A stretch of DNA of 63,925 bases, filler included, from Sluysia triapertura (GCA_046118255.1; 5 parts of 5 records of this genome joined end to end with filler, not necessarily neighbours in it), one strand, 5' to 3'. Counted from the whole stretch's first letter, positions 261 to 41,241 are shown. Notes: generated from the letters alone by a model not told the origin. Program-made: numbers and translations.

Positions 261-762
261 CATTATTATTATTATTTTTATCATTATATTAATTTGTATT
301 AATTGAAGAAGTTAAATTTTATTTGTATTTTCTTTTATATTTGAATTAATTTTTTAATTATTTAAATATTTATTTCTAAATCGAAGATGTATTTCAATGA
401 AAGTTCTAAAATTAATTATAAATAATTAAATTAAAATTTATCAAATTATTTAATTATTTTTTATTGTATTATAATTTTAATGAATCACTCTGCTTTAAGT
501 AGAAATACGAAATTGAACAAAATTTATCATCTTCGGTAATAAAAATAGCGACAATACCAAAATAAATAAAACAAAGTTAATTGTAGGTGGAAAGATACAC
601 ACACTGTTTTGTAGGGATTCAAAAATGAACATGGAATAAAATATTAATTGTATTGTTAAAAAGTGTAATATCAATTAAATAAAATATCAAATATTCGAAA
701 ATTTATTAATAAAGAAACAACTAAACTTATTATTCATTCATTGATAACTAACAACATAGATT

Positions 763-2440
763 TTAACAATGGTTTGTTGTACTCAATTTTGGAAGTTGTG
801 GATTTGTAAAATGAGGCAATAATTTTAAAAGTTTAGATTCTTGAACTAAATATGTTTTTAATTGTTTAATTTTGAGAAGTTTATACCGATTTATAGTTTT
901 ATAAGTTTCGAGTACTAAGTAATCTCTTAAATAATCATTAAAGAAATAAATACGATTCATGTTAAGTGTGAAGTTTGTAATTAGGTTAAAATTTCGAAGT
1001 TTCCATGTAATATTTATACTAAGGATGGTCATCATAGTGCTTAGTAGGAAGATCTGCTGAATAGTGGAATTAGCTACGGTTAGTTTTAACAATATACACG
1101 TAACATCTACTAATATTTCTATAAACATAGGTTTAGACTTAAAATTATTGTTGCAGCTATTATATGACATTAACTTATCTTGCCAACTTATTTCTTTATC
1201 ATACTTTTTATAAGAAGACAATAATTTCACCTTTGGAATCAATGAGTTTGAGCTATCCTTTTTGTCTTTAAAAAAATACATAAAATTTAATTGAGATATT
1301 TTTATCATACATAACAAAACATTTATCTTCAATGAATAAATCTTCCATTTACTGGGATTTGTACTTCACCACATCTTATTGCTCTCCACCGTTCCAGTTT
1401 CTAAACTTGTCATACACGATACTTGATTGTGAACAGTCTTCCTCATAAACTTTCATAGATTCATTGTACGTGGAGTTGATTTAATACTTTCATTGACTGC
1501 CAGTGGTACAGTTAATTGTTGGCCTGGTAGAAATAAGTTAATCCTATTAACTCGTAGCGTAATAGAACATTTTGGAATAATTATTTCCATCTCTAAAGCT
1601 AACGATCCACTCGATCTCCGATTAACACTTTTCAATGGGTTCTTCAACAAACGTAATAAATACATGAAACACTTCTCAACTAATAAATATAATAGACTAT
1701 CTGACTCTGCATCAACGTATGTAGTAAATGGAAAAGTTGATGATTTACTTCCTTTTCGTTCACACTGAAATAACAGTTTATTAACTATGAAAATATTCTT
1801 TTCAAGCAATAGAATCGAATCGATTTTTTTTCTATATAACAATGAATTATACATTGTTAGACAAAATTCCTTTGACATATATATAATTGTTTCTGGTTTA
1901 TTTTGCCGATGACATAGTTTAGTACATAAATCGCTAGTGATTTACAACATATTGTTAAACGACGATCAATTTTACACCAAATTTCGTTTATAATAGAACG
2001 AGGAAGATAAATTTTAACATCAACATTAAATTAATGTAGGATATTACACAGTTTAAAACTAAATCAATTGCGTTCATTTGTATCAAGGTTGCGGCCTTCG
2101 ATTGTCCTGGTTGATCGTAAAAAATAAGTAAAATTTTGTAGTTTTTTGATACATGATATCGATTACAAATAATCCGTGAGCTGTTGTCAGAATCTTTATT
2201 GTTATAGTTTTCTAAGTCATCTTTAAATAGTTTCGTATTATCTAAATGTTTAGTTATGATTTCGGAAGTTCGATCAATTTTTTGTTGAACTTGTTCATCT
2301 GTTAACTGTTCTCGTTCTGATTTAGTTGATGATACCATATTATTAGAAGACAATACTAAATATACAAAGCTTTGTGTAACATCTAAATTTTTAGTCCACC
2401 GAGAATAAAACATTAAAAAATTTTTGTCAATGTGGTACAA
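763..2440 (-). pseudogene. Decayed orphan gene (three tandem ORF fragments of 150, 141 and 189 aa), cargo of cassette copy 1
   Basis: Same-strand ORFs separated by short stop-containing gaps. AATAAA on the minus strand follows near 703-708. No recognisable family motif. Confidence 0.5.
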
Positions 2441-2502
2441 ACTAATTAGTGCTAATAATCATACTAAAATTTTTGATGCTGATTTACAGTAAATTGTGGT
2501 TG

Positions 2503-2650
2503 GCCATCCAATCACGACTTCGAAATAGTAAACTACATGATATGTATAATGATTGGATGGCAGTGAAAAATAATGAATATTGATGATTACCATCATCAAT
2601 ATTGACAATCTAATAACATTTGCGAACAGAAATGTCAATATTGATAACGG
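2503..2650. promoter_or_regulatory. Double-hairpin module: inverted CCAAT pair plus ~18-bp stem hairpin
   Basis: gccatccaatca (2503-2514) and tgattggatggc (2550-2561) form a perfect inverted repeat; ccatcatcaatattgaca (2590-2607) and tgtcaatattgataacgg (2633-2650) match at 16/18. Confidence 0.7.
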
Positions 2651-2697
2651 CAGTAACACTTTTGATATGGTTCGGACTTTTAAATAATTTAATAATT

Positions 2698-2749
2698 GAT
2701 AATAATAATAATAGCAATAATAATATTGTCATTATTATTATTATTATTA

Positions 2750-2788
<39 letters not shown>
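2698..2788. repeat. (TAA)n followed by (TTA)n microsatellite
   Basis: Direct reading; it produces the spurious poly-Ile ORFs in the track. Confidence 0.95.
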
Positions 2789-2789
<1 letters not shown>

Positions 2790-3677
2790 GAAACAAAGAA
2801 TAATTCGCATAAATCTTGTCTTTATAAATCTTAACTACATGATCTTTTCTTTCTAAATCTTAATTTCTCACAAAAAAAATTGAGGAATAAAAGCTATTGA
2901 TATTATGTGAAGGAGCAACGGTAGTGTGGTACACTTTGTTTCAGTTATCATTGTTGCTTCATCATAAGGAAATGAATTCTTTAAAGCTGTATTGAATTTA
3001 TTTTTGAAGATAAAATAAATGATTTGAGCTGTGAGTAAAATGACGAATGATAGAATAATTCTTGACGTTTATTTAAAGTTTATAGTTGGGAATAAGATAT
3101 ATATACTGAATATAATGGTTTGAAAGGCTTGTTGAAAGGTTATAGTTTATTAAATTTAAAAGACAATTACAAAATACATCTTGGCGTATTTACAATGTTG
3201 TTGTAGAATGTTAATAATGGTTATGTGTAGATGAAATGGGTTTGAATTAGTATAACTGATTCGAGGTTGTAACGTAAATGTTTTCTCTGTTTCAGGTACT
3301 TGTTAATGCTGTTGAATGGTGTTGATGTATTTGTGATTTGAATATTATATGTTGTGGTTGTGATTTGGTTTGGGAGAATGACTATAAGTAAATGTTATGG
3401 ATTATTCGGTATTAATTATCAAAGTATAGTGTGAGGTGATTGATTGAGAGTATTAGGCGAATTGTTTGAGATGTATATGTTGTTGAATTGTTATAAATGT
3501 CGAATATTGTTTATGATGAATCAGTTAATGTAATTCGATAGTGTGAAAGGGGTTTATTTTAGATGTTATGCTTTTTGTGAACTAGTTGTTGAAATTTGAT
3601 AATGTTGAGTTTGATTGTGATTTGAATGTTGTAATGTTTTAGTGAATTCTTTTGAATTATGGGTGTTGGCCACTACA

Positions 3678-4150
3678 GTAATTTAAGTAAAGATAGATTG
3701 AGTGGAGTAAAAAAGAAATGATGGTTGATACTTATGACGTTTTGATAGACCGTAATTGTCAAAGTTGTTATTTTCAGTCTAATTCTCAAAGAGATTTGGA
3801 TGATTCGTGTGAGAGTGTTTGATTGTGAGACTTGGGATCTACCCACATTGAAGATCCATGCATATGATAATATTTTTATTTGTTAATACTTTTTATCATT
3901 TTATTATTTTAAATAAAATAAAATAAATAAATAATTTTTTTGGGAGGGGGGAAAGTATCTCAAGAATGGTTTCGCGAGGACACCAGCCATATTTATTTTA
4001 TTTTGAATTAAGTATTTTATTTTTAGCAATTTTATTTCAGACCCTTCCCAGTTTATTTTAAAATATTTTGAATTAACCATTTGATTTTTAGCAATTTTAA
4101 GTTAACTTCGTGGGCGACACTCGAAAACTTATAATTTGTATTTGATTTTT
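3678..4150 (+). repeat. Dispersed repeat family A/B, segment A
   Basis: Homologous to 25525-25645 (gtaatttaagtaaa...taattgtcaaagtt) and inverted at ~11440-11903 (ctctttgagaat, tatgcatggat, tatcaaccat). Confidence 0.8.
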
Positions 4151-4290
4151 TTGTAATCATTAAATAATTCAATTTTTGTTTATTTTATTAAAAAACTTAA
4201 TCTTTGGGTTGAATAAATAGCATCATCGAAATAAGGAAATTTGTTATAATTTTATTGTAGTGGATATTTCTTTATTACTTTTAATTTAAC

Positions 4291-4403
4291 GTCGAACCCG
4301 GGACCATCGCTGCGCAGTTAGAATACTCTACCACTGCGCTATCAATTTCAGTTTATTATATATCAATTTTACCAAATGGCTCTTTAGGCCTTTTACCCCA
4401 ACA
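4291..4403 (-). mobile_element. tRNA-bearing TG..CA mini-element, 3'-truncated copy
   Basis: The minus strand begins TGTTGGGGTAAAAGGCCTAAAG and contains an A box (tagcgcagtggtagag) and a B box (gggttcga); flank atac. Confidence 0.8.
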
Positions 4404-4777
4404 ATACGAACTTCTTTGTAAATTCTTTAGAGATGTTAAATTTTAAACTGTTATTATGTTTTATAGATGTAGGATTATAAAAGACAATGGAAAACAAATT
4501 AACGATTATATTTTTATTATAAGTTTTACATCGAAAAATTTTATTTTTCTTATATCTCTTCTACATATGTTATGAAGCTAATTTTGCACTTGATAGTCTA
4601 AAATAAAATTTAAATTTAAATTATAAACAAGTCAATTAAAAGAATTAATTACATTCTGAAGGCACTGTGAAACTTGAGAAATCCACGTAAGTATATTTTG
4701 GTTTTGAAAAAATAAGTAGTCTGTTTATTTGATTTTAATAGAATCGACTTTCATATTATTTTGAGATAAATAAATTT

Positions 4778-5724
4778 CTAATCTAGCACAAACGTCTGTT
4801 GTACCACATTTAGATAATTTTGCGTAAGTTCTGTATAAATATTATATAATTCGTAAGCCGAAATGTCATAGCCGCCTCTGCAAATACTCATACAAATGTT
4901 TGTAACATCACCACAATGAGTAATTTCATTCAATTTATCTTTTCTAGACTTTCTATAGGCGATCAAAGAATTTGAAAAATCTAATAACTTTAGAACATCT
5001 CTGAAAATTTGAACTATTAATGTAGATATAAAATCAAAAATCATGTTATCATTGACAAGATGGATGAGATAACTCATCACATGATGAGCAGAGTCACTAC
5101 GCACATTTATTTCTTTCGTGTCTAACAAAAAATATGATAAGTGATCACAAAACGTTATTGTTGATTCATTATGAAAAGATGTAAAATAGCTGAACATGTA
5201 GTAGAACATTGTCTTGTGCTACAAATCAACATATTAAATGAAATGGCGATACTATCATTAATACAACCGTAGCCTTTCAGAAAATCAATTAAGAAAATCA
5301 TAGATTCATTTATATTATTCATTTGACTTAATTTAGTATTACTTTTCTTCTCTTTAGACATATACTCTGAAAGTAAATGAGCATCGGAAAATGTAATATA
5401 TCTTGTTAAAACGTTCGCTATTAGCGACTGAACTAGTTCTTTAAAAAATAATAAACACTTACTATATGTATATATTGGATCCAATGACTCAAAACTATAA
5501 ATTTGAAACAATTCTTTTATCCATACTAAAACTGGAACTATGTATTCTGAATTATGTACGAGGATTTTATAACATCGTTCTATACATTCAAAATTGACGC
5601 ATTTGAATCTTGCATATAAATTACTAATTATTAAACTAAATAATTTGCTGCTGTTCTCTGTTAAAACTAAAGACAATTTCATTAAGATATCATATTGTGC
5701 TCCAAGTAGTTTTTTTGGTTTCAT
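4778..5724 (-). pseudogene. Frameshifted orphan gene (189 + 143 aa overlapping ORFs), cargo of cassette copy 2
   Basis: ATG at 5724; two overlapping ORFs suggest one ~315-aa helical protein with a single frameshift near 5155-5209. No known motif. Confidence 0.55.
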
Positions 5725-5897
5725 TCACTGATTGATGAAATAACTGAATTTTTATCCATTCGATTAGGCATTAATTTACTTCTTTTCAGCATTATTTACG
5801 CTTTAGAATTTTTTTGGAATTCGATTTTTCTACAAGTTAATTTTATTTGTGACTATCAAAATTACTTTAAAAAATTTTTGCATATAAGTTTATTCTG

Positions 5898-6057
5898 ATT
5901 AGTTGCCCAATCAGAGAGCGTAAAATTTGATAATCAGTGTAGCACTGATTGGACAACTAATATGAAGAATCAAAGTAGCATAACTGAGTGATAAGCCATC
6001 ATCAGTGTTGACGTAAATCTGTTTACAGTAATGAGCAATGTCAGCACTAGTGATGGT
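5898..6057. promoter_or_regulatory. Double-hairpin module, copy 2
   Basis: attagttgcccaatcag / ctgattggacaactaat (16/17); gccatcatcagtgttgacgt / atgtcagcactagtgatggt (15/20). Confidence 0.7.
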
Positions 6058-6839
6058 AGTTACAATTTTTGATGTATTATGTTAAACTAATGAAATTTAA
6101 TATCAATAATAATAACAATAATATTATTATTATTAATATTAATTAAATACAAAATATTAAAAAAAGCATAAACTCTTGTTGAACTCTGTCTTTCATTTTC
6201 TTCAATACTTCTTAACATATTTTGAACCAAAATAAAATAAAATTGATAGAATTGAGTGTAATTACAACAATAATAAGAGGATCAATGTTATAGTTATTGT
6301 TCTTATTAAACTGCACAAATACTGAACACGATCTTACTTTAAATCCTTTAGATTTCTAAACATATTTGAAACTAAAAATCTTTAAGTAAAGGTTGGTTTA
6401 AGTGAATATGAAAAAGATAAATTATAGTAGAAGTCTTAATATATTCAAAAGGTTATTGTACAATGTTAATAATGTGATTGTTATCTTTCTATTTTTAAGT
6501 GGTATTGTCTTTTGTGCTGTTAGGGATTATGTGAAACAAATGATGAATTTAAAATGTTGAAATTGATTCGAAGGTGTCGGGTGGCTAATTTCAAATGAGG
6601 TTGTAGTTTGATTGTTATGAATGTCGAGTAACATATTTTTGATGTAAATTGATGGTATTGGATGTAAATGTGGTTTGTATGTTATGAGATTGTGGGTATG
6701 ACTTGATTCTGGCAGATGAATTGTTTTAGTGAGTGTAGATAAAATTAAAGTGTTGAAGAATTATTTTTTTTATAAAATTTAATAGTAGTGAAGGTTGACC
6801 ACCGTATCTTCAAGTTGGCGATATCGTATTTGTATTAAT

Positions 6840-7978
6840 GACAAAATTGAATCGTTGATCGAATTGCAAGAAAATTTACGAAGACATAGTGAAGACATAG
6901 TGATCGGATTGAGTTAACTCTCTTTAAAGAAAAATCAAAGATGAATCTATCGATAAAATTACAGATTAACATTTAATAAATTGATAGATAACTATATCAT
7001 ATCAAAAAGAGTTACCCACTTATTTAAATCTAATACTACAAGTCGATGCTCCTTGAATGACCAAGATGTGGATGATGAAAAATTTAATCAACTAAAACGC
7101 TGTAAATGCGTGATGATAAAAGGTTTCTATGATTGTATTCAGCAGTATTGTTTAAGTGAATATGAATTACTATGTTTCTGACCAAAGCGAAAAATCAAGC
7201 ATTAAATATCAAGTTCTGCTAGCGCAACCACGACACGTAATTAGTCATGATAAAAGAACGAATTTGAAGGAAACTTCAGATTTAGAAGATGCTACTGAAC
7301 ATCTACTAAAAGAGTTAGATAGTCCTCAGAATATATCAAGTAATATTATCACGCTATTTGCATACCATCATCAATGAATACGACAGGTTTCCAAGTAGTT
7401 CCACCACGGCTAAATATTAAGTCTCATCTAATCACAAATGTTCGAGACCAATCCATTTCCAAGCCATATTTGAACACAATTTCTATTAATCAATTACGAA
7501 CGGCACAATGTCCCAGCGAACTCGATTCTTATAATAAGTGTATAATGCGTTGATTGCGCTATCCAAACTTTCATAATATAACCGAAATCAACAACAGTCA
7601 TGAAAGGACACAGGATCAATTGGCAACATCATTAAAACATGGAATCCAGCAATCATGTACACAATTAGATATAATTACGCCCAATGATATCTACAATGAC
7701 ACTCTTAATATTAATAAAGTAATTTTGATTTATCTCGTTATTCATAAAGATGTAATTATCCAATTTTTATTTTTTAGGAATCTTCAATCTGCAAACATAC
7801 ATTCACAATAATATATAATTCTCGAACTTTAAAATCGTTAATATCGAAATTAAGTTTACGTGTTTATAGGAATAAATTTTTATATCTTGTTTGTGCTAAT
7901 TTTTATAACTTTTCGAATATAATACTGATAAAGAAACCTGATACAAGAGTTGTGAAACATTTTCAATATTGTGTTTAA
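6840..7978 (+). pseudogene. Decayed spliced orphan gene with a 59-nt intron (7719-7777)
   Basis: Run of + strand ORF fragments. Removing GTAATT...TTTTAG opens a further ~66-codon frame to TAA at ~7978; AATAAA at ~8032. Confidence 0.4.
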
Positions 7979-8074
7979 ATTCAATGAATTATTATACAAA
8001 TTATAATTCAACAGCTTAATCATAAATTTTTAATAAACGGTGTCGAGAGCCCAATTTCACTCCAAAATAGTAAT

Positions 8075-8890
8075 CAGCCCATGCCTAATTTATCATCTCT
8101 TCATCATTCTAAATATGAAAATTTCAGCATTTTTTTAATTGAAAATTAATTAAAATTCTACTTTGTTCAATATGAAGGCTTTCCTCGCATGAACTCCATC
8201 TGAATATCTCTTTAAAACACATACAAACACAATTACAGTTTTAACATAGCATTCCTCATTCAAAAGTTATTGACACAAACGTAATTTTTCTTAATTAATT
8301 TAATAAATATTTTAATTAATTATTTATTTATTTTAACTTATTTAATTCTAAGTTTAATTATGGTTGTAATGTTGTTAAATACTTTATAAGGTACTCAGGA
8401 GGCTCTAGATGTTTTCACCTTCACCATTCTCAATACTTTTCTACTTTTTTATTTTAATTATAATGTATCAAATGTATCTTTAGTATTATTAACCATGATT
8501 TTAATTCTTTAACATTTCAAAAGTTCCAAACATTTTACAAGATTACCCGAAAGGCTCAAAAGTCTTCAAAGTTTCTAAAAGATCAACATGATCTCAAATG
8601 ATCCGAAGGTTCAGAAGTTCAATGGTATCTTCATACTTCAAGACATCTTTCCAAACCTTACTTAAATCTTTATAATGGTCTCAATACCTTACAAAGATCA
8701 TTGGGACTCCAGGTGTTCTTCGGTTTCAGAATGATTATAAACATTTTATTGTTCTAGAAATATTTAATTACATTTATATTATCAAATTTCAGCTATTTTA
8801 TATCACTTTTTAATCTATTTTAAATTCTCTTACCTTTTAACCTATTTTCTTGGTAATTGCAACATTTTTATGAACTCTTACAGGGTCTGT
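8075..8890 (+). repeat. Dispersed repeat family C, copy 1
   Basis: Shares tagcattcctcattcaaaagttatt and ctctagatgttttcaccttca with 52745-53430 (+) and matches 24625-25330 (-). Confidence 0.9.
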
Positions 8891-9654
8891 TCTAATTTTG
8901 TTCCTTTTAAATTTCTTAATTATCAAATATCCTCTTAGTTACAAATCTCAGTAAAAAATTATACTCTTCTAAATCAATAAAAACGACTTTACCTTGTCCA
9001 TTATTAAGTGTTAGTTTTACATTTTAAAAAATTCTTTAATTGAAATTATTCAAACGACGTTTATTCCTCCAACAAAAAAGAAAACAAATAAGTGCACGAA
9101 AGTTTATTTGGACAAAAAAATGTAAACTACAATAATAGATATAAAATATTATGACTAGAGTTACCTCTACGAATAATAATGAATTTTAGCAATTACACTG
9201 TGTCTACCTAAAACTAGATTTTAATTAAACAGTTTAAGTAAATTTTATTTTTTTTGCTAACGGAAAAGGAATCCTACACAATTAACTTACTGATAACTCA
9301 GATTTTCAGAAATGCCAGGATCAATTGATTATTGTTAATCCAAACTGCGATCGCAATGTTTCGAAATAATACCAAATGTCGTCTTCTTAAAAATTTAAAT
9401 CACGTCTTCAATTCAAAAACATGTTCTAGATTAAATTAACAGAGTTTCGATCACGATCGATAATAACGTACACTCCATTTTTAACGAAATAACTAGTGTC
9501 TTTAAAAACTATTTTAGTGAGGCATCAGCAATATTACACAATAATTATATTTTTAGATAAATAATAATGATATTTTGGTACAATCAGTCAGGTAGATAAT
9601 TTTTAGGTAAAATAGTCAGGTTAATGTTTTTTTCTCACAAAAATTAGTTATTAT

Positions 9655-10745
9655 AGATATCTATGTAAAATTTTGTTTAAGACTTATAGAATAAAGTAAA
9701 ACTTTTACGTGAGTCCACCAACGTACTAGGCTTACCGATTAGATCTAGTCGTTGGATTTATAGATAAAAGAATGGGGGTAATTTACTAAGGATAGATGCA
9801 AATTTAGATTGAAGTTTTCAATATTCTGCTAACTGAAAAAATAACAATTAAATTTTGTATTATTAAGATAGTTTTCGAAAATCCTATGAAAAGGATTTAT
9901 AACAATAGATTTTACGATATCAGAATTAAATTCTGATAAAACTTTGAGGCGCAGGCGATTTTATGATTTTGAAACTATGAAATAAAAGTTATTCTTTTAA
10001 ATAATCATATATTATCAACAATAAAAAAATTTACAACGGTAATTTAAATATTTATAACAAATTGATAAGAATTTACGTAAATTAACTTAAGGAGTTAATT
10101 TTCAAATAATAAAGTTTAAAGAACTGTATTTTACGAAAAAACTATTAAACAGTTTTTTAAAGTCTTTATAAAGCAAAGATTTTACTTGTACTTTACGTTG
10201 ATACTAAATTCGTACGAATAACTTAACAAAATAAACTAACGTAAAACTATTTTTATAATATTCTGGCCAAGTATAAATTTTTCAGTAGATTAATTATCTT
10301 ATGAGTTATATAAGAATTCGTAGAGACTTGTTATGTAAAGTAGTATGAAAAATTTTTAAAAAATAAATTATGTAACAAAAATTTTAAAAATAAATTGTGA
10401 TTTATGTTTTTTTGTTTGTTCTTTTATACATCTTTTATGTTGGCCTTGATTTTTTAATAAAAATAAATTAATAAAACAAAATATTTAATAAAATTTATAA
10501 TAATTTGAAAATATTTAATAACATTGAAAAATAATATTAAAGTACTTATGTTCGTTTTTAGATCTTCAAAATTTTTTCAAAATAATTAATTAAAATCCAG
10601 TGTTTTTAGAATAATTAATTGAAATCCAATAAACAAAATTCCAATATTAATAATAAAATATTATCAAAAAACCAAATCAATAATTTTATGTATACAAAAA
10701 TTAAATTCATAATATTTGGTAGTTATGCATTCACGATCACAATTT
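9655..10745 (+). repeat. Dispersed repeat family D, copy 1, with GC-rich structured core at 9709-9755
   Basis: cgtgagtccaccaacgtactaggcttacc is also present at 27576 onward (+) and 22089-22136 (-); aaatcctatgaaaaggatttataa is shared in inverted form at ~21875-21900. Confidence 0.88.
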
Positions 10746-10937
10746 GTCATTATTAATTTGTACAGATAAATACAGATGTGAACTTTCAGGTTAATTATTG
10801 TTGTTGTTGTTACTGTTATTATTATTATTATTAATTTTTGATATTAGTATTATTATTACTTTGTTCAGAATGTTCAAATTCTGAATTCATTTCCACATTT
10901 TACTCTGTAATTGGATCAAGCTTTTTTGTTTTAATAA

Positions 10938-11903
10938 TATTGCGTCTTTAAAATTACTAGCTATTACGACTCCATATTAACTTGGTTAGCTTAAATGAAC
11001 TTTAATAATTTAAATAGTCAGTATATCAAATATATTTTTGCAGTAATCTTCTTTTATAATATTAATAACTATTATCCCCAAATTTAAGTTCTTGACAATC
11101 ACAATCAAAAATAGGACAATAATATACTATTAAACAAAAATTCGTGAAATAATTTATTATCAATAAAAATCTTTACTAAATCCTGAGAATCACTAAAACG
11201 ACAAAAATAACAGTAGCGATATAATAAAATCAAATATAAGACAAAACAACCAGGAGTGACGCAACAGACACCAACACTAACAAAATATCTAGAAAATTAA
11301 TAGTAATTATATCATTTAAGTATTTTAGGTCAACAGAAATTTCTAAAGATAAAACACTTAGTATTTTGATAAATTAAAGTGAGTAGGGATATTCTTCTAA
11401 AAGTATCTTAAAAATATCTAAAAATCAAATATTAACGTTAACAAAAATTACTTGGGGCATTTCCCAAAAACTATTTTAGTAGTAACAAAAAATCAAACTT
11501 TTAAAAATTTACAAAAGTTACGTTGGGTGTACCCCACAAAACTATTTTAATAATGACAAAAATATCAAATTAATCGCTTATATTAAATTAAAATATAATC
11601 TATTACTTATCTTATTTTAATATAATAAAATAAAATAAAAAAATAAATGAAAACTTTACCCTATGCATGGATGTTCATACCATTGTGCTATTGCACCATA
11701 GTGTCATCGTTGTTGTTGTGTTATTGTATTATTGTGTTGTAAAAATTTTGAAATCTTTATTTTATACCTTCTAATCATCCAATCAATTCACAATCTCACA
11801 ACCAAAAACTCTCTCACACAAATCATCCTAACCTCTTTGAGAATCAGACCGACATGGTATGGTCTGCCAAACTTTATTACAAATCTGATTTACTATCAAC
11901 CAT
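10938..11903 (-). repeat. Dispersed repeat family A/B, long inverted copy linking segments A and B
   Basis: Reverse complement matches 3720-4150, ~25990-26010 and 1-260. Confidence 0.8.
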
Positions 11904-12003
11904 NNNNNNNNNNNNNNNNNNNNNNNNNNNNNNNNNNNNNNNNNNNNTTAATTAATTAANNNNNNNNNNNNNNNNNNNNNNNNNNNNNNNNNNNNNNNNN
12001 NNN
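11904..12003. other. Artificial assembly spacer (N44-TTAATTAATTAA-N44, six-frame stop linker)
   Basis: Identical 100-bp structure occurs four times. Confidence 0.98.
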
Positions 12004-13059
12004 TCTTCAAATTTGATTTCATATTGTTATTAATAATTCTTATTTTAAGATTATTTCTTAACTGTAATAGTAAGGTTTAATGTTTTCAAATTTTAATTTC
12101 ATATTGTCCTTATTGAAACACACGTATACTTATACTTAGAGAAATTTAATTGTAATTTCTTACTAAATTTTGAAATTAAATTAAATGCATGCAATTTCAT
12201 TGTGAATTAAGAATCAAGCATTTTAATCTTAGTAATTTTTTAAGCATCATTATTTTAACAATGATATTAAGATGAATAATTATTTTAACATTATTTTATT
12301 AAAATTAAGTCTATTTTAAAATGAACATTATATAAAATGTTAATGGTAAAAATGAATATTATGTGTACAAAATATTACAATAATATTAATTTTTATTTTT
12401 ATTTGTATTAGTCATTTTGAATATGAGTATTAGCCATTTACCTAATAAAACATTAAAATGCACAAACAACTTGGCTGTAAAGCAATTCATTAATGTATAG
12501 TAATGATTGGCTAAGTTATGGTAAAAATCGTACATGCACAAAAGTAGTTCGAAAAAACATCAATAGTAAGTGATTTTCGTGCGGGTTGTATAGAAAACTT
12601 TTTTACAAATAATATAAAGTTAAAATGAAATTGTTCTGACTTTATGATATGATGAATTACATATTGATTAATAAAAACCCTTAAGAATAGTTAAATAATA
12701 AAATCAACAAACACAATTAAGCTTAATTCTCCTCGTCGTTATTATTACGTTATTTAAAATAGCACCGACACAATTCGACCAATCTTTGACAGACTTAAAC
12801 AAATTCAAGTCATTCACAATATTTCAACGTAACTACCACTCTGCTATCACAACAAAATTATAATATGATTATAAATATAAATATAAATATAATATAATAA
12901 GATAATATAAATATTAAACACAACAATACCACAAAACAAATCATAAATTTATGAGAGTTATATTTTAACAAAACACAAACCACAATAAATTGCTGTCAAG
13001 AGCATACAAAACGAACCACCAGACTTTAAACCACATATTATAAAATAATTAAACGTTAC

Positions 13060-15300
13060 ATATTTCAAAATAAGTACTAACACATCCTTTCTTTCCGCAG
13101 CTGCATTTAACTTTCTAATAATAATAATAAAAATTAATAATAATAATAATTATTATTATTATTATTAATAAAATAATAATAATAAATTTTATTAATATTA
13201 AAATTATTATTGAGTATAGAAATAGTTAATAATAAAACATTAATAATAATAATACAATAATAACAATAATAGTAATTTCAATTTTCGTATATTAGAAGTG
13301 AGAATTATAAAACTCTAAACAATATATTCTAAAGTTATTCAACATTGAAAATTAAGTAATCACACGTACTTTCCTCCTGAACGTTCATTGAACTTCCTAA
13401 AAATAAAGTAATAATAATAATAGCATAATTATACTAATGTTAATATTATTATAATGATTATAAAAAAGTTAATAAAACATCAAAAATAATAATATAAGAA
13501 TTAGAATAATAATTTTAATATTCATATATTTGTAAATAAATATAATATATTCATTAAATTTTAATATAAACAAATATAGTGTAATATTCATTATTCATTA
13601 ATTTTTATTTAAATAATAATTTATTGTTTTAATTTTTCATTATTATGTTATTTTAATAGTTAAGAATTAAATTTTAAGAAAATAATTTTCGACTAAGGTA
13701 AATAGTCATTTCAATAGTTTTACTACTATTTATTTATTAATATTATTGAATTTATTTGGACTACTACTATTTATTCATTTGTTAACTATTAGTTATTTGA
13801 ACAGTTATACTACTATATTATTGAATTCGGATTACTACTATTCATTATTAACTATATCATTTATTAACTATATAATCTGGAAATTTATTGAATTTATTTA
13901 GAAATATTATAAAATACGATTAATTTCGAAAATATTATAAGAAAGATTTTGTATTAAAAGAGCAAAAATATAGACAAAAACAACAGAAATTATCTTCAGA
14001 ATTGCTTTTCAAAATTATTGAAGAATTATTTTATGAACAATTTACAATACAAAGACTCAAATTTATTTATCCAAGACATTTTAATAATTGATCTGAAACA
14101 AGAAGATTCAAGTGAGAAATATATTTTCTTTTTAGTCGAAAATTACTAAAATTATAATCTAATTTTACTTATTAATAATTATATTGATTCATAATTTATT
14201 AAAATTATCTTTTCATTTTATTATTTGTAAATTAGACAAGGATTGGAAATAGAGTATTCGGGCGCAATAGTAAATTTTAGATTAATAATTATAATTAAAC
14301 CTAATTATTAAGTTTGAATCAAACATTGACGAATAAAATTCCATTAAAATCGAATATTAATAGTCACGTAATTTCATTTAGTCGATTATTAAGCACTTCT
14401 ATTCTTAGCAACAAGGACAAATAAAGTGATTCATACCTCCTGTTAAGTTTGATATAAAGTGATAACATTAATAAAAAAGTACAGAATTATAAAAATTTAT
14501 AAAGAGATTTAAATTAATAGTAAAGAGCAAGAGTTCTGCAAATACAAATAAAGTTTATAAAGTATAAAATAGCATTCAGATATAACAATTCAGATATAAC
14601 ATTCAGTTAACAAAAATTAATAACGTAAGGTCACAGAAATAACGTATAAATTCTTAAAGACTTAGAAGAAGCAAAGAGAATTTTTCATTTTAGCAGAATA
14701 AGCAAAAAAATATTTATTACACTTACATTAAAAGTTATTACATAATAGTAGTGATAATTATGAAAATCTTAAACAAAATATTGTAATGTACTTAAACATT
14801 GCATATTTAAATTTAAATACAAATACATACTTTTTTTCTGAACGTGCATTGAACTTCCTAAGAATAAAGTAATAATAATATAATTACTACTAATATTAAT
14901 AATAATAACAATAATGATAATAATATATAACATTAATGTTAAAATTAATATTATGATTAAAGAAAAAGTTAATAAATCTTTAATGATAATAAACATAATG
15001 ACAATAATAATGTGATTACAAAGATAATAATAACAATAATAGTAATTTTTATATTCATATATTTGTAGTAAAAATTATAAAACACTAAACAATATATTCT
15101 TAGGTAATTCGAAGTTGTAAATTAAGTACTAACACATCATTTTCTTTTAAAGGTTCATTGTACTCCCTAAAAATAAAAGTAATAATAACAATAATAATAA
15201 TAAATAAAAATAACAATAATAAAACATCAATAATAAAACAATAATTATATCAATCTACATTTAAATAATAAGCACTAACGTAGTCCTTTCTTCTTCCGAA
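13060..15300 (+). repeat. Degenerate ~280-300-bp tandem repeat interrupted by a ~1.2-kb insert (~13550-14770)
   Basis: Recurrent taagtactaacacatc...gttcattgaacttcctaaaaataaagta motif at ~13070, 13352, 14815, 15122 and 15268. Confidence 0.7.
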
Positions 15301-15543: not shown

Positions 15544-16945
15544 TTAAATTAACATTAACATTATTTTAACTTCAAAATGCCTGTTATAAAATTGGAGATA
15601 ATTGTACCTACATTTATTTACAAAACAAAACAGTATAAAAAATTTTAAATCATATTGTTTATTGGATTTGAACTGCAAACCGAGTTGGGAACATGCTGTC
15701 GTATTTCTGACATTGTGAATTCTAAAACAAAAATCAAACGTATAAGTTCGTTGTATCAAATTAAAAATAAGATTTACCTTATAATAGTTATAATCAGTAA
15801 AATCGTTTTCCACTTTTAACTTGTATAAACTTGATAGTATACTAAAAATTTGTTTACAAAAAAACTTGACTCGTCTGTGTGAGTTTCAATATTCACTGTG
15901 ACTAATGTTTGACCATAAAAGACTACTGTAATTTTATGATCGGAATTGATTCCATAATGCTTCATCTTTGAAAAAGTGTGACATTACAACATCGATCATT
16001 TCACCGTTTATCAAGGTTATTCCACTAAATTCTTGGAAATCCGCTACTGGAGTACTAATATTTTCTGCGATGGTATGTTTGAATCCATTCATTATCATGT
16101 CGAATGATATTCTATGTTTCACATCTAGATATAAATTGTTGAAATAAACAGTTGTTATTTTGTAATTTCAGACTTAATTTTGCCATTTCAGATCGAATTG
16201 ACACTTTTACATTAGTTCTATCCACTTGGACGATTTCATAACTAACTTTAAGAGTTTCATCTTTAAGAGTAGATAGGTTTATCGAACAAATGATCTGTGC
16301 AAATACTTGAAAAAAAGGATGAATTTCCTCTGATACGATTGCCTGTTAATATATAATGGTGACTTAAACAAACAGCATTCATAATCGGAATGATACTGAA
16401 CACAATCGAGCCTAAAATTTCACTTAAGTAATCAGGTGGTGTTCTTTTCATGATTCCATCTTCCGTGAATCTATCGTATAAATCCAGATGACTTCGATTC
16501 TCTTTAATAATTGCCTTACTTTTTATAGGGGTTGATAAATATATTTTAGTAGTTTTATAAACCTTTGTACAAACAATAACAATTTGTTTCATCATCGAAG
16601 TAACAAATTGTATAGGTAATTGATTTATAAAAATTGCAATAAAATTTGATTAGGAAACATCAAATTCATATTGGTGTTGATCATTAACTATTATTGACAT
16701 GGTTAGATTCAAATTAGATATGCTTATTTTTAGTCTTCTTTCTCTTGCTGAGTTTGTTTCTAAATATTCTTGATTTCCTTGATAAATATCAATTAAATTG
16801 ACAATCGTATTGCTGTCACCGTTATAAACATCACCTGCTGAAATGAGAAAACGATATATTTAAAAATTCATGAGATAATACTTCGAGAAGTCTATTGATA
16901 TTACATATACAAACGGATTTATCATTTACCTGTAGATCAACATCA
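15544..16945 (-). pseudogene. Decayed orphan gene 3b (ORF fragments of 110, 62 and 89 aa)
   Basis: Collinear minus-strand ORF fragments downstream of the 17187-17254 inverted CCAAT pair; polyA-like signal near 15540. Confidence 0.45.
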
Positions 16946-17186
16946 TTAAGCAAAGAATTGAAAATATGTTTATGAATTCGAATTAATAATTCTTTAAATC
17001 ACTTATACAAATATAATTTACTTCATCTTTGAAGCAATTATAAAGAAATTTTGTTTTTTTGAACATTTATAATAAATTTAATATATTATGAAATGTTTCG
17101 AGCTCAAAAATAGTATTGAACAATTTTGCATTTAACGACTAACAAATATAATAATAAAAACCAATGTATAGTCATGTTATTTGAGA

Positions 17187-17254
17187 TGATTGGATGTCCA
17201 ATCCAAGAAAGCAAAAATATAGTATAACGATAGCACTGATTGGACATCCAGTCA
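17187..17254. promoter_or_regulatory. Inverted CCAAT pair upstream of gene 3b
   Basis: tgattggatgtccaatc / gattggacatccagtca (16/17); tagcactgattggaca is identical to 5940-5955. Confidence 0.65.
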
Positions 17255-17325: not shown

Positions 17326-18640
17326 TTAATTAATTTTAAAGATTTTAAAATTAATGTTTAAATCTTTGGTCATTATTATTAGAAAGTACGTTATATGGCT
17401 GTTAAAAATTTGATTGAAACTTAATTTGTACTTTAATATAATTATGAAAATTTTAAATACCTTTGCATCAAAATTTATAATCAAATGAACAGATACATGA
17501 ATGTTTTTATTTAAAATTTTGAAACATGAATAATTTAAATTTAATTTTTTTGTTCTGAATGTGGCATGAGATAGTGTCGATATTCTGTCACCTGAAAACA
17601 AATTATAGTTATAATTAATAATAATTAAATAACAAAAAGTTGTTACTTTAATTTTAGCACCCTTATGAATATTACCGTTGTTACGACCAAATTTGACATA
17701 AAGAGTATTACTTCCGATGTTATGATCGTAGACATTATAAGACTTTATAATGTCTTTATCATCATTTGTATTATTAAAAGACGTTTGATAGTGAATTTAC
17801 GTCTGAAGTTGCAACTTCCACATTTCTTGACGATATAATAATCAAACTTAGTACTAAAATTATAACATTGATGATGTAAGAAAAATTTTATATCTAAAAC
17901 ATGATACTTGCGAGTATTGATGCAGTGATATTTGTATTTTTGTTCGAAATCATCGGGCATTAATTTTTTATTCGAAGGTTGTCCGTTTCTTGGTTTATTT
18001 TTATTATTTGATCACCAGTTTGAGCTGGTTTCTCATGTAATTGCAAGACTTCTATATGCCGAGGATGGAAAGCATCAATAAAAGAAGGATCATTTGTTGT
18101 CAAAGTATTTTGGTTATGATTATCTCCAAAATCTTTGATTAAACAATCACTAAAAATATGAATGTCGGAGAAATATTCCGTAACTTTACACTGCTTCAAA
18201 AATCTGTTTTGAATCATTTGTACTACTTCTTTGTAACTTTTTAAATCTCTCGTAGTTACTAGCGACTTCAATGGTTGAACTTCAGTTTGAGCAATGTATA
18301 GTGTAAAGAAATGGGTCGATAAGTAACATCTTGAATTGTAATAATAACATTGCCATTTTCGATTTTGAACAAATTTTTATCAGCACTTGGTGACAACTAA
18401 TCAATAACTAACTCGACTTCTTGACGTGATAAAAGTTGACAAACTTCAGATATATTTAGATATACTATAACATCTAAATCCATCGCCGCTTTCTTGACCA
18501 TCGTTATTTCTTTCGTTAAATTCATGAGTACAATGTTTATACAGTAATTAGTTGTTGATGAGACTGGTAAATCTAAATTTTGCTTGTTTAAACTTGTTGT
18601 ACTTGTATTAAATCGTTTGGTAATTGTTTTAAGTTTTTCA
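17326..18640 (-). pseudogene. Decayed spliced orphan gene 3a with a 55-nt intron (17592-17646)
   Basis: ATG at ~18640; ORF fragments of 103, 71 and 91 aa; minus-strand GTAACA...TTTTCAG intron precedes the last fragment. Confidence 0.45.
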
Positions 18641-18738
18641 TCAAGAAAAGATATTGTAAAATTAAAACAGTTACTTTTATTTTTTTTTGATTTTGTGATT
18701 GAAAAATTTTAATTTTTACTAATAAATTTTGCATCACG

Positions 18739-18922
18739 ATTGGTTGTCAAACCAAAATCGTTTGAAGAAAATGAGTAAAATAACTGATTTGATTGGATAG
18801 CCAGTAGGGTTAGTTAGTTTGTTAATGGAAATCGATGATTGATGTCAACTGTGATGACAACCTTCATCAACAGTGGTATAAAATTATAGTTGTAAAACAA
18901 AAATGTCGCTGTTGATGAAGGT
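18739..18922. promoter_or_regulatory. Double-hairpin module, copy 3
   Basis: Imperfect CCAAT pair at 18739-18805; accttcatcaacagtggtat / atgtcgctgttgatgaaggt (17/20, remaining positions G-T). Confidence 0.7.
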
Positions 18923-20559
18923 AGTAACTCAGTTGATTGAGAACTGCATTATTAAAATTTTATTTTGAACAATTTATGTTAAAATTGATGATAATAATAA
19001 TAATAACAGAGTGTTATTATTATTATTAATCAAGAAAATTGCATTAAATCTTTGTTTATTTCTTTTACACGAACTTTTCTTTTATATCTGTCTTATTCTT
19101 AAAATATATAAATTGTAATAGTGAAAAGAACCTTCAGGTTTGTAAATGTAGTGGTGAGGCTTTACCTTCTGGTCTTAGGTACCTTTTTTGCTGTTTTAAG
19201 TGACTTTGCATGATTGGTTCTAATATTTGACTGAAATAATATTTTTGTCTGGAATGTTATTAATATATGAATAGTTTTGAATAATGCAGACGTTAAAGTG
19301 AGCGATGAAGATGTTTGACTATTGAGATTGATAGTACAAGATGTAGGTTTAAGGTATTTATTTTATTTGGGAGTGTTTGTTGATTGGTTGTGAATGTGGA
19401 TGTAATTAAATTGTTTGGGATGAAAGGATGTAAAATAAAATATTCTGAATGAATATTTAATGTGTTTTGATGGTTTAAAACGTTATTGTGATTTGGATGT
19501 TGTGAGGTGCTGAATAAGTGTTCTTGATGGATTTCTTGCTATGAGTTGATAGTATTCTTTATTATGAATTTATAGACTTGAGGTGTTTAGAGAAGTAAAA
19601 TTTTGTTTTTGTAGATTTGTGAGATTTTGGTATGTTTAAAATGGGATTTTAGTAAAATTTGTAGAAGTTATAAGGTTGGCCACCACAGTCGATATTATTT
19701 ATGTAAAGAAGTAAATATTATAAGAAAAGTAACTGTTTTTGATGAATAAAATTTAGGATTTGAATTGAAAACTGTCATTATTAAGTTGCTAATTTAGTCG
19801 ACCAAGCTAGAATGTGCTTCTTTAATCGTAGAAAAATCTAATTTTAAATATTCAAAAATAACTATCAAAATTTTACTTGTGTGATGATAGTAATTTGTAC
19901 TACTAATTATACATGTACATATATTATTCTCGCTTCACCTTAAAAATAAGGTCTTGTAGTCATAATTATTCGTTTTATGTTTATTATAGTAATGATCATA
20001 ACTTGTAATGTTTATTAATGGCTAATATGCTACTAATAATCAAATAAAATTTAATTTAATTTGATTTATTTTAATAATCATATTGTTGGCATCTTTTCTA
20101 ATTACTCAACAATTATAGTTTTTATAATTTATGGGTTCGCCTATAATCTACGGTTTAAATCCCAAGGAAGACGTAGTTATAGGAGTGACAGTCAAAAAAT
20201 ATTCTGCAATAAGGAATCCTTAATCTTTAGTGAACAATTTACTAATTAAAGTCTAATTCTTTAACAATTGTCAGAATGTTTATTAATCTTTCAATTTATC
20301 TTAAATTATCCTTAAAACTAATCTACGTCACTGAACTGTAACAAAATTACTTTTTAGTCAAAATTATGAAAAACTCAGTTACCCCCGTATATATATTATA
20401 GACAAATTAAATAAATAGATTAAATACAAAAATAAATATAAGCAATGTACAATAATATATGTTCTAGGATTTCACCTAAGATTAATATAAACAAGAATTT
20501 AATTAAGATTTTAACCCAGGTGAATACTTTGGCTTGGAAATTGTTTATGTTAATTTAAG

Positions 20560-22461: not shown

Positions 22462-23445
22462 ATTCATACAAGCAAGAAAATAGAAAGAAAGGTGACGTGT
22501 AAAAAGAAACAGAGATCGTAATGATAACAATGATATAATTGTTATATTTTAATATGATGATTTTGCTGATATTATTATTATAGTTATTTTATGATAATCA
22601 TGATAATCATATTATATAACAATAATCCTAATAATTATTATATATTTTAATACAATTGGATTTATAATAACAATAATTATGTACAACGACTAGGTTTGAT
22701 TTTTTGAATGAGTCAAGTAGTTTATTTAGTGTTTTTTATGTAAGAAATGTTTTATGTGATGAAGTGTTGAAATTTTGATGTGATTTCATTACAATTGTTT
22801 ATTCATCATGATATTACTGTAAAACTAAATGCGTTCAATATGTTAAGTCAAGAGGTTAAGTCAAATTATCACAAAAATCAAATATAAACTTATCATCATA
22901 ATCAAACTTAAACAAAGTTAATTTAATGAAAACATGTATCAAAGTGAAATGAAAATATAAACTCTATCGTCAAATTAAAACATCGAAAATTAATTTCAAA
23001 AAATATGAATTCAATATCATCAAAAGCTTATAATCAAAATCAAGTATTATCACATTAAATAATTAAATGAAATAAGAAACAGATGAATATTCTTACTCGC
23101 AATTACGCATAAAAATAATAGTAATATCAAATTATCAACATTTAAAATGCAGATTAAGTTTATCGTAACCAGAATAAACTTATCTCATAAAAGAAATATC
23201 AATATAACATTCTAATAGCCAAATTATTCTGGTGTTTTATATGCCATGCAGTGAACTCAAGATTAAGATATTATAATTGTAAACATGACACAAAATAATG
23301 TAATCCTCATAAATAACATTTTAAACAAACTTCAAAATACCAAATCATCAAACAGTACACAAACACAATTCTTATAATATTATACACAATAATTATTGTC
23401 TTATTATTATATCCTTATTGTTATCTTTCATTATTATCTTATTAT

Positions 23446-23547
23446 GACTATAAAAAACAAAATTGTAAGACGGGGCTGAGAGCTAAGTAGTGTGAAGCGA
23501 GAGGCTGGGGTTCGATTCCCGGTCAGTCTATTTATTGAAGTCTTAAA
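23446..23547 (+). mobile_element. tRNA-bearing mini-element, 5'-truncated copy
   Basis: tgtaagacggggctgagagctaagtag...ggttcgattcccggtcagtcta...gaagtct. Confidence 0.8.
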
Positions 23548-24624
23548 TTACTACTTACATTTCTATACTATTTCTATAGTATTCCTTATTACTATTACTA
23601 TCACTATTATTATTAATTTTCTATATGCATTGAAAACACTATTATTTTAACATATTGTACGTATTAAAAGCTTTTGCATACGTTATTAGTTTATTTTTGT
23701 TTATTACGATTTTTATATAGAAGAAATTTAGTTCATAAATATCCCAAACAATTTTTGAATTCATTATGCAGTCATTATGATTTTGGAAAACTTTTGTTCT
23801 GTAATAACGTCACATTAACAAATACAAGCTCCTACTTTCACAGAAAAAATAAAATGTTTTTGATGTATCACTAAAACTCCATCTCCGAGTTGCATTAATA
23901 CATGGTCACTCTCATTAAACGGTAGTTTAAATACCAGCAGTAGTTTCACCGCTTCAAAGTGTTATATTGCTGTACTAATAAACGGACTATTCTTAATAAC
24001 CGTAAAATGTCTAAATTTATAGATTTTTATAGTGTTCAGCAGATAATGGTGAATGTAATTACAGATGACATTGTTACTAAAAATCGTACCTCTACCGTTC
24101 GTCGTTACCCTAAACGTTCAACAATATCACATATTTACAGTAATCGATAAAGTACGATTACATCACAGCAGCATCAACAAACACCTGGGTTCAGTATTTT
24201 TTCTAAACCGGTTGACAAAACGTCACATTCAACAATCAATGTAACACACCATTTCAATACAAGAATTTGAAGAATTTGAATAGTGCGTGTTAAGCAAATT
24301 TTAGAAAGTAACCTTAGACTGCTGCCTTATGTTTTGTCTGATCAACATAGATTTAAAAGAACAATTTGACAACGAAAGATAATTAAGAATAAATAGAAGA
24401 TTTAATGCGTTTTGCAATTACCTGACTAGTTAACTTCGATTTCTGAGTAAATTAGAGCGAGAAAAAGGTATGCATGCTTTCATAGAATATCGCTAGATAT
24501 TATTAGATGATTATGTGACTAATTTTATAATTTTGTACCTTGTTATTATCGAATATCTTGTACATTGTATATAAAATGTAGTCGTTCATTTTCTAATTTA
24601 TTGAATAAACCACGCAGTTTAAAC

Positions 24625-25330
24625 ATTTTTCATTGAAATGTTGGTATTGCCCAGCTGTGGATCTGGAAACGAATGAAAACATACAAAATCATAAAATTAC
24701 GGAATAATTGATACAAAGTGATAGTTAAAACATTATACATATTGTTGGAATAAGAATAATGAAGATGAAAACAATTATAGTAGCGTGGATAACTGATGAA
24801 TAAATTGGGATTTCTCATAAACGAGTTTGAGATGGACTTTGGATCCCTTTGAACTTGCGGACTTTGAGCCATCTGAGACTCCATTAACCTTTAAGCATTC
24901 TTGAAACATGGATAGGCATGTAAGGTCTTCGATTAATCTTAAAATCTTTAAGATATAGGAGAAATAAAATCATTGTCATTGGTATTAAGAATAAATCTAG
25001 TAAAGTAGTAATTAACAAGAAGGAATCAGAAAAGTGAAGGTGAAAACATCTAGAGCATCCTGAATGCCTTATAAACTACTAAATAACTTTAGAACCTTAA
25101 TAAACATAAAATAAGAATAAGTTTAAAAATGCATCAATAATTTAAAATTCTAATTAACTTTTTGAATGATATTTGAATGCGAAATTGCTATGTTAAATTT
25201 GAAAATGTGTATGCATTTATTTTTAAAAAACATTTAAAAGCCTTAATATTGAGCAAGGTCAAACTTTAAATATGAATTTTTAATACTTAGAATGATGAAA
25301 ATATAATGAATTCAATATGAGGTGATTGCT
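24625..25330 (-). repeat. Dispersed repeat family C, inverted copy
   Basis: gaaggtgaaaacatctagag and flanks are the reverse complement of 8075-8890 and 52745-53430. Confidence 0.88.
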
Positions 25331-25524
25331 ACGAAAAAGGAGAATCTAGAAGTGAGTTTGAAATGTCTGTTGAGTGGTTAATTTGAGAATAAGAACCGTA
25401 AACATTTTTCATTAGAAAATACAGTATGGAAAATCGAAAATCAATTAAATTCTAAAAAGTGAAAATAAATTCATTATTTTTATGTATGTTAACAATATTG
25501 TTGATTGTCATTTTAATGTGAGAT

Positions 25525-26010
25525 GTAATTTAAGTAAAAATAGACTGAGTAGAATAAAAGAAAATGATAGTTGATAATAAATCAAATTTTGGTGTCTCGT
25601 ATCTAATGAAGTTTGACAGACTGTACCATGTAATTGTCAAAGTTATTAAAAAATTTTTCGACACAACTAGTCAAGCGTTATTAATATGCTCGTTGATAGA
25701 AGGTCCGTGATTTAGGTGAATTTTTAAATTTACTTTATTATATAATTATTATTAATAATTAAATTTTACATTTGATTATTTTTTTTATTATCATTGAAAA
25801 ATAAACTTAAGTAATAATTATCTATTGTATTGGCAAAGATGATTTTTTACTTTTATATTAAAAAAATTAATTTAAGGGTCGAAAATTATTAATATCAAAC
25901 TTTTGAAATTATATTCATAAGCGTTTTTTAAGACCCTTTATCTATTTATTATTGTAGAATCACTTTTTGGAAGGTGGGTTGATTTAATTGTGTTACGTCA
26001 CCACTGCTTT
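25525..26010 (+). repeat. Dispersed repeat family A/B, further copy
   Basis: Matches 3678-3770; tgttacgtcaccactg matches the reverse complement of ~11250-11266. Confidence 0.6.

Positions 26011-38578: not shown

Positions 38579-38667
<89 letters not shown>
38579..38667. repeat. (TAA)n microsatellite
   Basis: Direct reading. Confidence 0.97.
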
Positions 38668-41030: not shown

Positions 41031-41044
41031 TTAATCATCTATAC

Positions 41045-41221: not shown

Positions 41222-41241
41222 TATCATTATTATTATTATTA

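Follow-up and report, generated by a model that had tools for sequence, protein, structure and literature searches.

The window analysed here, a 63,925-nt stretch of Sluysia triapertura DNA (GCA_046118255.1), consists of five contigs of 11–15 kb joined by N spacers. It is AT-rich (GC ~25%) and repeat-rich. The subject is a repeat family with one layout on the minus strand: a TGT end, a non-coding arm, a TAA tract and a module of two inverted repeats (together the chassis), followed by broken coding regions (the cargo). The family is real and probably undescribed; it carries genes, is represented here by three old copies, and has one proven end and no enzyme of its own. The first-pass annotation had listed five copies. 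Three of them (copies 1–3) hold up, and copy 3 holds two repeat-plus-gene units. Copies 1 and 2, copy 3 and copies 4 and 5 are not known to be linked, because separate contigs were joined by Ns.

The public run X1 carries this DNA: pieces of 880 and 235 nt among its 6.25 million contigs are identical to the window. X1 may be the source sample, and it served for repeat structure, not as independent confirmation.

Ends, arms and abundance of the copies

The ends and arms lie at the following positions:
3665–3677 (−): end of copy 1, TGTAGTGGCCAAC; motif match and sharp junction with a separate repeat, U
3678–3860 (−): neighbouring repeat U, outside the chassis, cut off at the copy 1 end
2800–3664 (−): C-rich/G-poor non-coding arm of copy 1, closing with the pre-TAA block; composition and alignment, multi-copy in X1
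2699–2790 (no strand): (TAA)n/(TTA)n tract of copy 1
582–590 (+): candidate second end of copy 1, TGTAGGTGG; inverted TGTAG(G)TGG word
6794–6806 (−): degenerate end of copy 2; drop in X1 contig depth
6150–6793 (−): arm of copy 2; composition, alignment and X1 depth
4256–4263 (+): second-end candidate for copy 2, TGTAGTGG, on the far side of a piece of a short interspersed nuclear element (SINE) at 4292–4404
19675–19687 (−): end of copy 3, TGTGGTGGCCAAC; motif match, U profile without a match in the outer flank
19035–19674 (−): arm of copy 3, with an inverted end-like word at 19147

The end motif TGTRGTGGCCAAC was exact at 3665–3677 and 19675–19687. With up to two mismatches, four matches were found in the window (3677, 19687, 54787 and 42424), where 0.41 were expected. 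A TGTRGTGG end is present in each of copies 1–3; that of copy 2 is more degenerate and absent from these four.

The TGT end of the element is a true end with a sharp junction. The outer flank of copy 1 is another repeat, U, which matches 25525–25650 and 11788–11903 (z 12). At 3677, one of the loose ends listed for X1 (6 of 2830), 47 contigs of repeat U carry other letters beyond the junction, and these letters match the uninterrupted U copy of the window at 25504–25523. The sharp boundary expected at the CCACYACA end was thus seen at copy 1, where U is interrupted. Across the end of copy 2, X1 depth fell from 1476 at 6764 to 163 at 6866 and 24 at 6872–6899. U was rejected as a part of the chassis, as its profile had no match in the flanks of copies 2 or 3. 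The outer flanks of copies 1 and 3 compared at z 2.6–2.8.

The word TGTAG(G)TGG occurs four times in the window (582, 3677, 4256 and 19147), with 0.7 expected and a maximum of three in 30 shuffles. All four lie in or at copies 1–3, and three are inverted relative to a main end. This excess suggests short inverted ends, as candidates, which would give copy 1 a length of 3096 bp and copy 2 one of 2551 bp. The inverted word at 19147 lies 541 bp inside copy 3 and could bound a short nested unit (19147–19687); no duplication was seen there. An 8-mer, TGGCCAAC, is common to the copy 1 end (3665–3672) and the outer arm of the CCAAT repeat of that copy (2497–2504). Exact sharing of this type was not seen in copies 2 and 3.

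In the first 300 nt of the arms, C:G was 72:14, 76:16 and 72:13 in copies 1, 2 and 3. The C-rich/G-poor skew is present in all three, but homology between the arms is weak (whole-arm z 3.4, 1.3 and 2.7; best E values of leave-one-out profiles 0.0028, 2.1 and 5.8). The homologous block reported before the TAA tract holds for copies 1 and 3 (z 6.2), but not for copy 2 against copy 1 (z −0.2) or copy 3 (z 1.2). The 3' trailers of copies 1 and 2 were not significantly shared (z 0.5).

The contig depth profile of X1 spans 2800–11900; the module, cargo and left end of copy 1 and all of copy 3 lie outside it. Summed contig depth, which is not a copy number, was 50–66 in unique bins and 38,000–43,000 over the copy 1 arm. 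In copy 2 it was 4,200–14,700 over the arm and 1,500–4,400 over the cargo; the 44,000 of the module bin was inflated by the TAA tract. The copy 2 cargo was found in 25–27 contigs with shared differences, and one contig of 263 nt was ~82% identical. Hence, the arms of copies 1 and 2 and the cargo of copy 2 are multi-copy and dispersed, as the first-pass annotation had supposed: depth over the chassis and at least one cargo far exceeds that of unique bins. Point depths in copy 2 were similar in order for arm (1476–4368) and cargo (1437–1904), so amplification of whole units fits better than free swapping. Together with a chassis that is just ~60–70% alike, this lends no support to recently interchangeable cargo on a common chassis.

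Beyond copies 1–3, one doubtful copy and a related subfamily were noted:
54370–54787 (−): 'copy 4', doubtful; flanked by SINE pieces, with an end-like word (two mismatches) and an arm of weak skew
41590–42424 (−): copy of the related subfamily, with a TGTAGTGTTCA end, an arm of 300 nt, a TTA tract and a broken open reading frame (ORF) that has a CxxC pair
28483–28782 (+): copy of the related subfamily, with a TGTAGTGTTCA end and an arm that shares homology with the one at 42424 (z 12.6)

While copies 1–3 are recognised by end, module and cargo, copies 4 and 5 did not hold up. Copy 4 has no module (z ≤1.7; leave-one-out profiles did not recover it either), no ORF and a TTA tract behind a tRNA-like SINE, and the module match of copy 5 was not significant (E 6.1). 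The subfamily copies are homologous from TGT inward (z 12.6) with unrelated outer flanks (z −0.3). The one at 41590–42424 is without the double-repeat module.

The inverted-repeat module and the cargo

Module and cargo features, all on the minus strand, are:
2581–2653: inverted repeat 1 of copy 1, arms of at least 18 bp, 25-nt spacer
2497–2567: inverted repeat 2 (CCAAT pair) of copy 1, 18-bp arms, 35-nt spacer
763–2458: cargo of copy 1, broken coding region in pieces 1988–2458 and 763–1941 (two in-frame stops)
5996–6056: inverted repeat 1 of copy 2
5896–5963: inverted repeat 2 of copy 2
4778–5724: cargo of copy 2, two overlapping ORF pieces (frameshift), multi-copy
18852–18924: inverted repeat 1 of copy 3
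18737–18807: inverted repeat 2 of copy 3, first unit, the most decayed
17560–18708: cargo A of copy 3, broken coding region, candidate intron-like GT..AG segment at ~17593–17647
17187–17254: inverted repeat 2 of copy 3, second unit, without a preceding inverted repeat 1 (profile E 3e-5)
15544–17110: cargo B of copy 3, broken coding region, candidate intron-like segment at 16838–16929

An unbiased inverted-repeat scan gave six hits outside microsatellites, and five of the six were inside modules. In pairwise comparison with shuffles, the module reached z 8.3 (copies 1 and 2), 9.2 (copies 1 and 3) and 2.1 (copies 2 and 3), and leave-one-out profiles recovered copies 1–3 (E 2e-7, 7.1e-5 and 4.6e-6). 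Repeat 1 has arms of at least 18 bp around a 25-nt spacer, and repeat 2 has 18-bp arms around 32–35 nt, each arm itself being a loose palindrome (TGATTGG-N4-CCAATCA). In each inverted repeat, 5 of 18 pairs had changed on both sides, in a compensatory way. Column shuffles reached this in 1 of 500 and 3 of 500 cases, and slid controls gave 0–1 pairs. The inverted symmetry is thus maintained between copies, and the two elements described for copies 1–3 as a hairpin and an inverted CCAAT pair were borne out as inverted repeats. The second CCAAT repeat of copy 3 (17187–17254), with an ORF of its own, had been overlooked.

Mismatches in the inverted repeats prefer neither strand, so nothing in this maintained symmetry points to an RNA hairpin. 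We rejected a strand-specific RNA hairpin as unproven, since the better fold of repeat 1 was that of the minus strand in copy 1 but that of the plus strand in copies 2 and 3. Rfam and ARAGORN gave no match. Elsewhere, the module pattern matched 3 viral loci and 17 from metagenomes, the latter with 7 distinct matches (GC 40–65%); none was like the window, and they were put down to chance.

CCAAT boxes are promoter elements. The CCAAT-bearing repeat 2 is promoter-like by sequence and is probably a gene-proximal promoter, because it is present ahead of each ORF, twice in copy 3, with the word ATGCAAAAWT downstream in three of four cases. This word, picked out after the fact, occurs four times in the window (2.6 expected), and in three of these it follows repeat 2 at a distance of 4–56 nt, on the same strand as the cargo. 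The sequence directly behind repeat 2 was not significantly shared between copies (z −0.8 to 2.4).

The four cargo regions of copies 1–3 look coding and are all broken by stops or frameshifts. Stop-free stretches of at least 50 codons cover 67–97% of them on the strand of the element, as much as in none of 200 shuffles for any region; on the opposite strand they cover 22–39% (8–82 of 200 shuffles). Genetic codes 4 and 6 do not account for the breaks. Insertion of a mitochondrial minicircle was rejected as well: table 4 (TGA = Trp) joins the pieces in copy 1 only, not in copies 2 and 3, and there was no Pfam hit. As every cargo in the window is broken, the suggested seeding of orphan host genes found no support here. 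The GT..AG segments in copy 3 (55 and 92 nt) are of host-intron size; they stay candidates because the open frame passes through each.

In a comparison of 131 translated pieces, the best match between cargos was 20.8 bits. The cargos are not one homologous family, and the statement that they lack mutual similarity stands. The same is true of the stated lack of a transposase, reverse transcriptase (RT) or integrase: Pfam gave no cargo hit above cut-off (29 ORFs, 4 further pieces and 18 read-through frames), and the 18 frames held no integrase, RT, Rep or capsid domain. PHROGs gave just one weak match for 18 ORFs (E 6e-4, unnamed family). The large protein searches took pieces of the copy 1 and copy 2 cargos as queries, not cargo A or B of copy 3. 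The word-based search gave no usable match for the copy 2 ORF (longer proteins only) or the 392-residue frame of copy 1. For the 200-residue piece of copy 1, the sole HMMER match among 1.84 billion representatives, P0002, was rejected as a tandem-repeat translation with a score summed over repeats. Exact look-up in the protein collection found 0 of 10 ORFs, the ESM Atlas nothing at 0.9 for two cargo pieces, and PDB sequences no usable match for three. Single-sequence AlphaFold models had a predicted local distance difference test (pLDDT) score of 48 and 34.5, too poor for use, and the viral fold search with AlphaFold models found none at E ≤0.001. Scans of metagenome and viral contigs for related loci gave no usable match. 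Signal peptides were not above background, as 37–90% of 1380 background windows score as high.

Other repeats and the host

Several further repeats were observed in the window. A tRNA-like SINE family with a shared 5' extension of ~60–100 nt has six pieces in 64 kb (4292–4404, 23439–23550, 42571–42729, 54152–54302, 54801–54852 and 54997–55144), with very high depth at 4325. A high-copy non-coding repeat with strong strand skew consists of a U block (pieces at 3678–3860, 11720–11903 and 25525–25660) and then a B block (8068–8893, 24553–25331 and 52757–53475); summed depth was 256,000–503,000 in some bins. Very AT-rich DNA past the copy 3 cargo (13055–15250, +) holds four units of ~80–140 bp in two pairs (64–81% alike), C/A-rich on the strand opposite to the copy 3 arm. 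By eye, 29143–29372 is a short element resembling a miniature inverted-repeat transposable element, with inverted ends of ~15 bp, and 33330–33530 (−) a remnant like the N-terminus of a mariner transposase.

At 43083–45200, a ~2-kb unit has two overlapping minus-strand ORFs (257 and 177 codons; past a stop, a further 130 follow). The ORFs are enclosed by direct repeats of 150 bp (85% alike), which consist of short tandem units. It had no Pfam, PHROGs, PDB or viral-contig match and looks like a separate virus-like or tyrosine-recombinase-type element. The intact, intronless ORF of 461 codons at 30482–31867 (+) has, by eye, a TPR-like start and a CxxC pair; it had no Pfam hit above cut-off and was absent from the protein collection.

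The sole clear host gene noticed in the window is an SLC6 (sodium:neurotransmitter symporter) gene at ~60000–62550 (+) with short introns. Two short exons at 62030–62393 match the SLC6 family (Pfam SNF, E 3.5e-9 and 2.9e-7) and are set apart by introns of roughly 55–80 nt. A protein search with an SLC6 exon, meant to place the host, was empty. From these exons with introns, the mariner-like remnant and the tRNA-like SINEs, the host is a eukaryote and probably an animal.

Origin and relatives of the element family

We put at about even the chance that the copies form a family of non-autonomous TG..CA-ended DNA elements of the Ginger/Gypsy-integrase type, in whose diverged subfamilies a common promoter-like module is followed by passenger genes that are unrelated to one another. 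The copies would be decayed transposons that depended in trans on an integrase of retroviral type (Ginger/Gypsy-like) from another locus, and they would have moved as DNA rather than RNA. Different subfamilies may have picked up different passengers long ago; units with passengers would then have been amplified whole and have decayed later. The short inverted TGTAG(G)TGG would be the second end. The ends of Ginger1, Ginger2 and most Gypsy elements follow a TGTNR rule (PMC2836005), and the ends in the window accord with it (TGTAG/TGTGG at 3677, 19687, 42424 and 28483; degenerate in copy 2). As with Ginger1 and Ginger2-Tdd, for which non-autonomous copies with the same ends are described (PMC2836005), the unit would be ~2.5–3.1 kb if the candidate second ends hold.

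Several points weigh against this reading. Ginger has terminal repeats of 40–270 bp, CCGG/CCGT or RTATAY targets and a target duplication of 4–5 bp (PMC2836005), whereas the inverted match between the ends here is ≤8–9 bp and the flanks do not fit these targets. The end behaves like that of Ginger or Gypsy, but with neither the long terminal repeats nor the target rules of Ginger seen here, the element was not filed as Ginger. In addition, the copies have no DDE transposase, carry unrelated orphan genes and have an internal double inverted repeat. No autonomous partner was found in the window and no candidate second end past the copy 3 cargo. The interrupted repeat U does not pick up again left of 582. 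The copy 2 trailer is low-copy, with an X1 depth of just 30–116 at 4469–4691, which also leaves the left boundary once placed at 4468 unsupported. An exact target duplication was found at neither copy 1 (best 4 of 5 bases) nor copy 2 (3 of 4 bases under one reading, with both second ends as candidates), in line with the earlier remark on this point. The arms are barely alignable from copy to copy and share composition more than sequence. For the module, covariation was drawn from 3–4 sequences, and a promoter on its own does not call for compensatory change at the central arm bases.

Instead, the copies might belong to larger virus-like elements, of Polinton/Maverick type or from some other endogenised DNA virus, and represent their left ends together with accessory or cargo regions, the core genes being lost or lying beyond the contigs. 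One conserved end with variable content downstream would fit, as would the two tandem genes of copy 3 with the same repeat upstream of each. In nematode Mavericks, the left terminal repeat and the integrase enclose a variable region of 2–5 kb whose cargo contains introns (bioRxiv 10.1101/2022.07.12.499685). We regard this origin as unlikely: in the ORFs and frames of the window that were scanned, domains of pPolB, integrase, capsid or ATPase were absent, no long terminal repeat partner lay in the 3.5 kb of contig past the copy 3 cargo, and viral searches were empty (viral contigs, PHROGs and folds), which gives the proposed link to an endogenised virus no support. Of the Polinton/Maverick hallmarks, terminal inverted repeats and genes for pPolB, integrase, ATPase and capsid were all absent within the 11–15 kb contigs. 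A little less likely still are host multigene families (e.g. parasite secreted proteins) spread by duplication, with conserved upstream DNA and coding parts diverged past recognition. Conserved non-coding and unalignable coding DNA is known from the Hessian fly SSSGP genes (PMC2955719), copy 3 has intron-like segments of host-like size, and promoter-like motifs are present. Arguments against such families are that TGT forms a sharp junction with another repeat, that depth falls at the end, that all cargos are broken, that signal peptides are in no excess and that the DNA just behind the repeat was not significantly shared.

If the copies were long solo long terminal repeats (LTRs), or came from the 5' portion of giant retrotransposons of Gypsy type that have accessory ORFs, this would explain TG..CA ends with just a short inverted match, the C/A-rich sense strand, the CCAAT boxes and, at copy 1, the near duplication of 5 bp. 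Giant elements with accessory ORFs exist in planarians (Burro; PMC6431247). This origin is rather improbable, given that no direct repeat, no purine tract before the end, no primer-binding-site-like word (none behind copies 1–3) and no gag or pol domain were found; read depth is uneven along copy 2, unlike in a solo LTR family, and the intron-like segments are in sense orientation. Of the hallmarks of an LTR retrotransposon, paired direct LTRs, primer-binding site, polypurine tract and gag/pol domains are all absent here.

In integrons, attC sites let gene cassettes be added or swapped. By analogy, the CCAAT inverted repeat could be a recombination site behind which single-gene cassettes are added or swapped. 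The repeat lies ahead of each ORF, two in tandem in copy 3, and its symmetry is conserved beyond the motif; polydnavirus integration motifs are likewise inverted repeats around non-conserved spacers, mostly of 32–78 nt (PMC7843510, PMC8460044). But no recombinase was found, the motifs are unlike those of polydnaviruses, the CCAAT content equally suits a promoter, and we saw neither one cargo behind two chassis nor two cargos behind near-identical chassis. We hold this to be very unlikely. A long shot of the same order is an animal cassette platform in which the CCAAT repeat would be both promoter and recombination site, unrelated genes would be added or swapped, and a TG..CA integrase would spread the whole; in effect, this would be what a transposon-borne integron would look like in a eukaryote.

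Helitrons have a 5' TC, a 3' hairpin with CTRR and insert between A and T. A Helitron was rejected here: the end is TGT (CACA or TACA on the other strand), and there is no Rep/helicase domain. IS481EU/Banshee elements (PMC10045372) share TGT..ACA ends, terminal repeats mostly <50 bp and non-autonomous families without a known partner; unlike the copies here, they are from parabasalid protists only, have duplications of 4, 15 or 25 bp and, in the available text, no passenger genes described. Cargo-bearing nematode Mavericks (bioRxiv 10.1101/2022.07.12.499685) resemble the copies in a variable, possibly intron-bearing passenger near one end, and differ in the terminal repeats and core genes missing here. 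Pack-MULEs, Helitrons and Starships also have coding cargo on mobile elements, but for the first two this consists mostly of gene fragments, and the captain of Starships is a tyrosine recombinase (PMC11162782); here the ends differ, the cargo has a fixed orientation behind a shared module and there is no captain. Polydnavirus host integration motifs (PMC7843510, PMC8460044) are similar in inverted repeats, size of the non-conserved spacer and segments with unrelated genes. However, their motif is different and is split to both ends at integration, whereas here it is intact and internal, and the copies have no terminal direct repeats, no polydnavirus gene family and no cargo Pfam hit above cut-off. 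As in the Hessian fly SSSGP family (PMC2955719), upstream non-coding DNA is more alike than coding DNA. Those genes lie in tandem arrays and encode small secreted proteins, with signal peptide and intron conserved, unlike the units here, which are dispersed, broken, longer and have a transposon-like end.

Judged from titles and abstract openings, a published description of this layout was not found; Repbase or Dfam may hold a deposited family. Descriptions of animal elements that mobilise cargo are few (Mavericks and Teratorn; the cargo of Helitrons and Pack-MULEs is mostly fragments; PMC11162782). The copies here are old and broken. If our reading is true, a TG..CA family with whole, unrelated orphan genes behind one regulatory module would be an added type in animals, and would suggest a way, open to testing, in which lineage-specific genes could be amplified.

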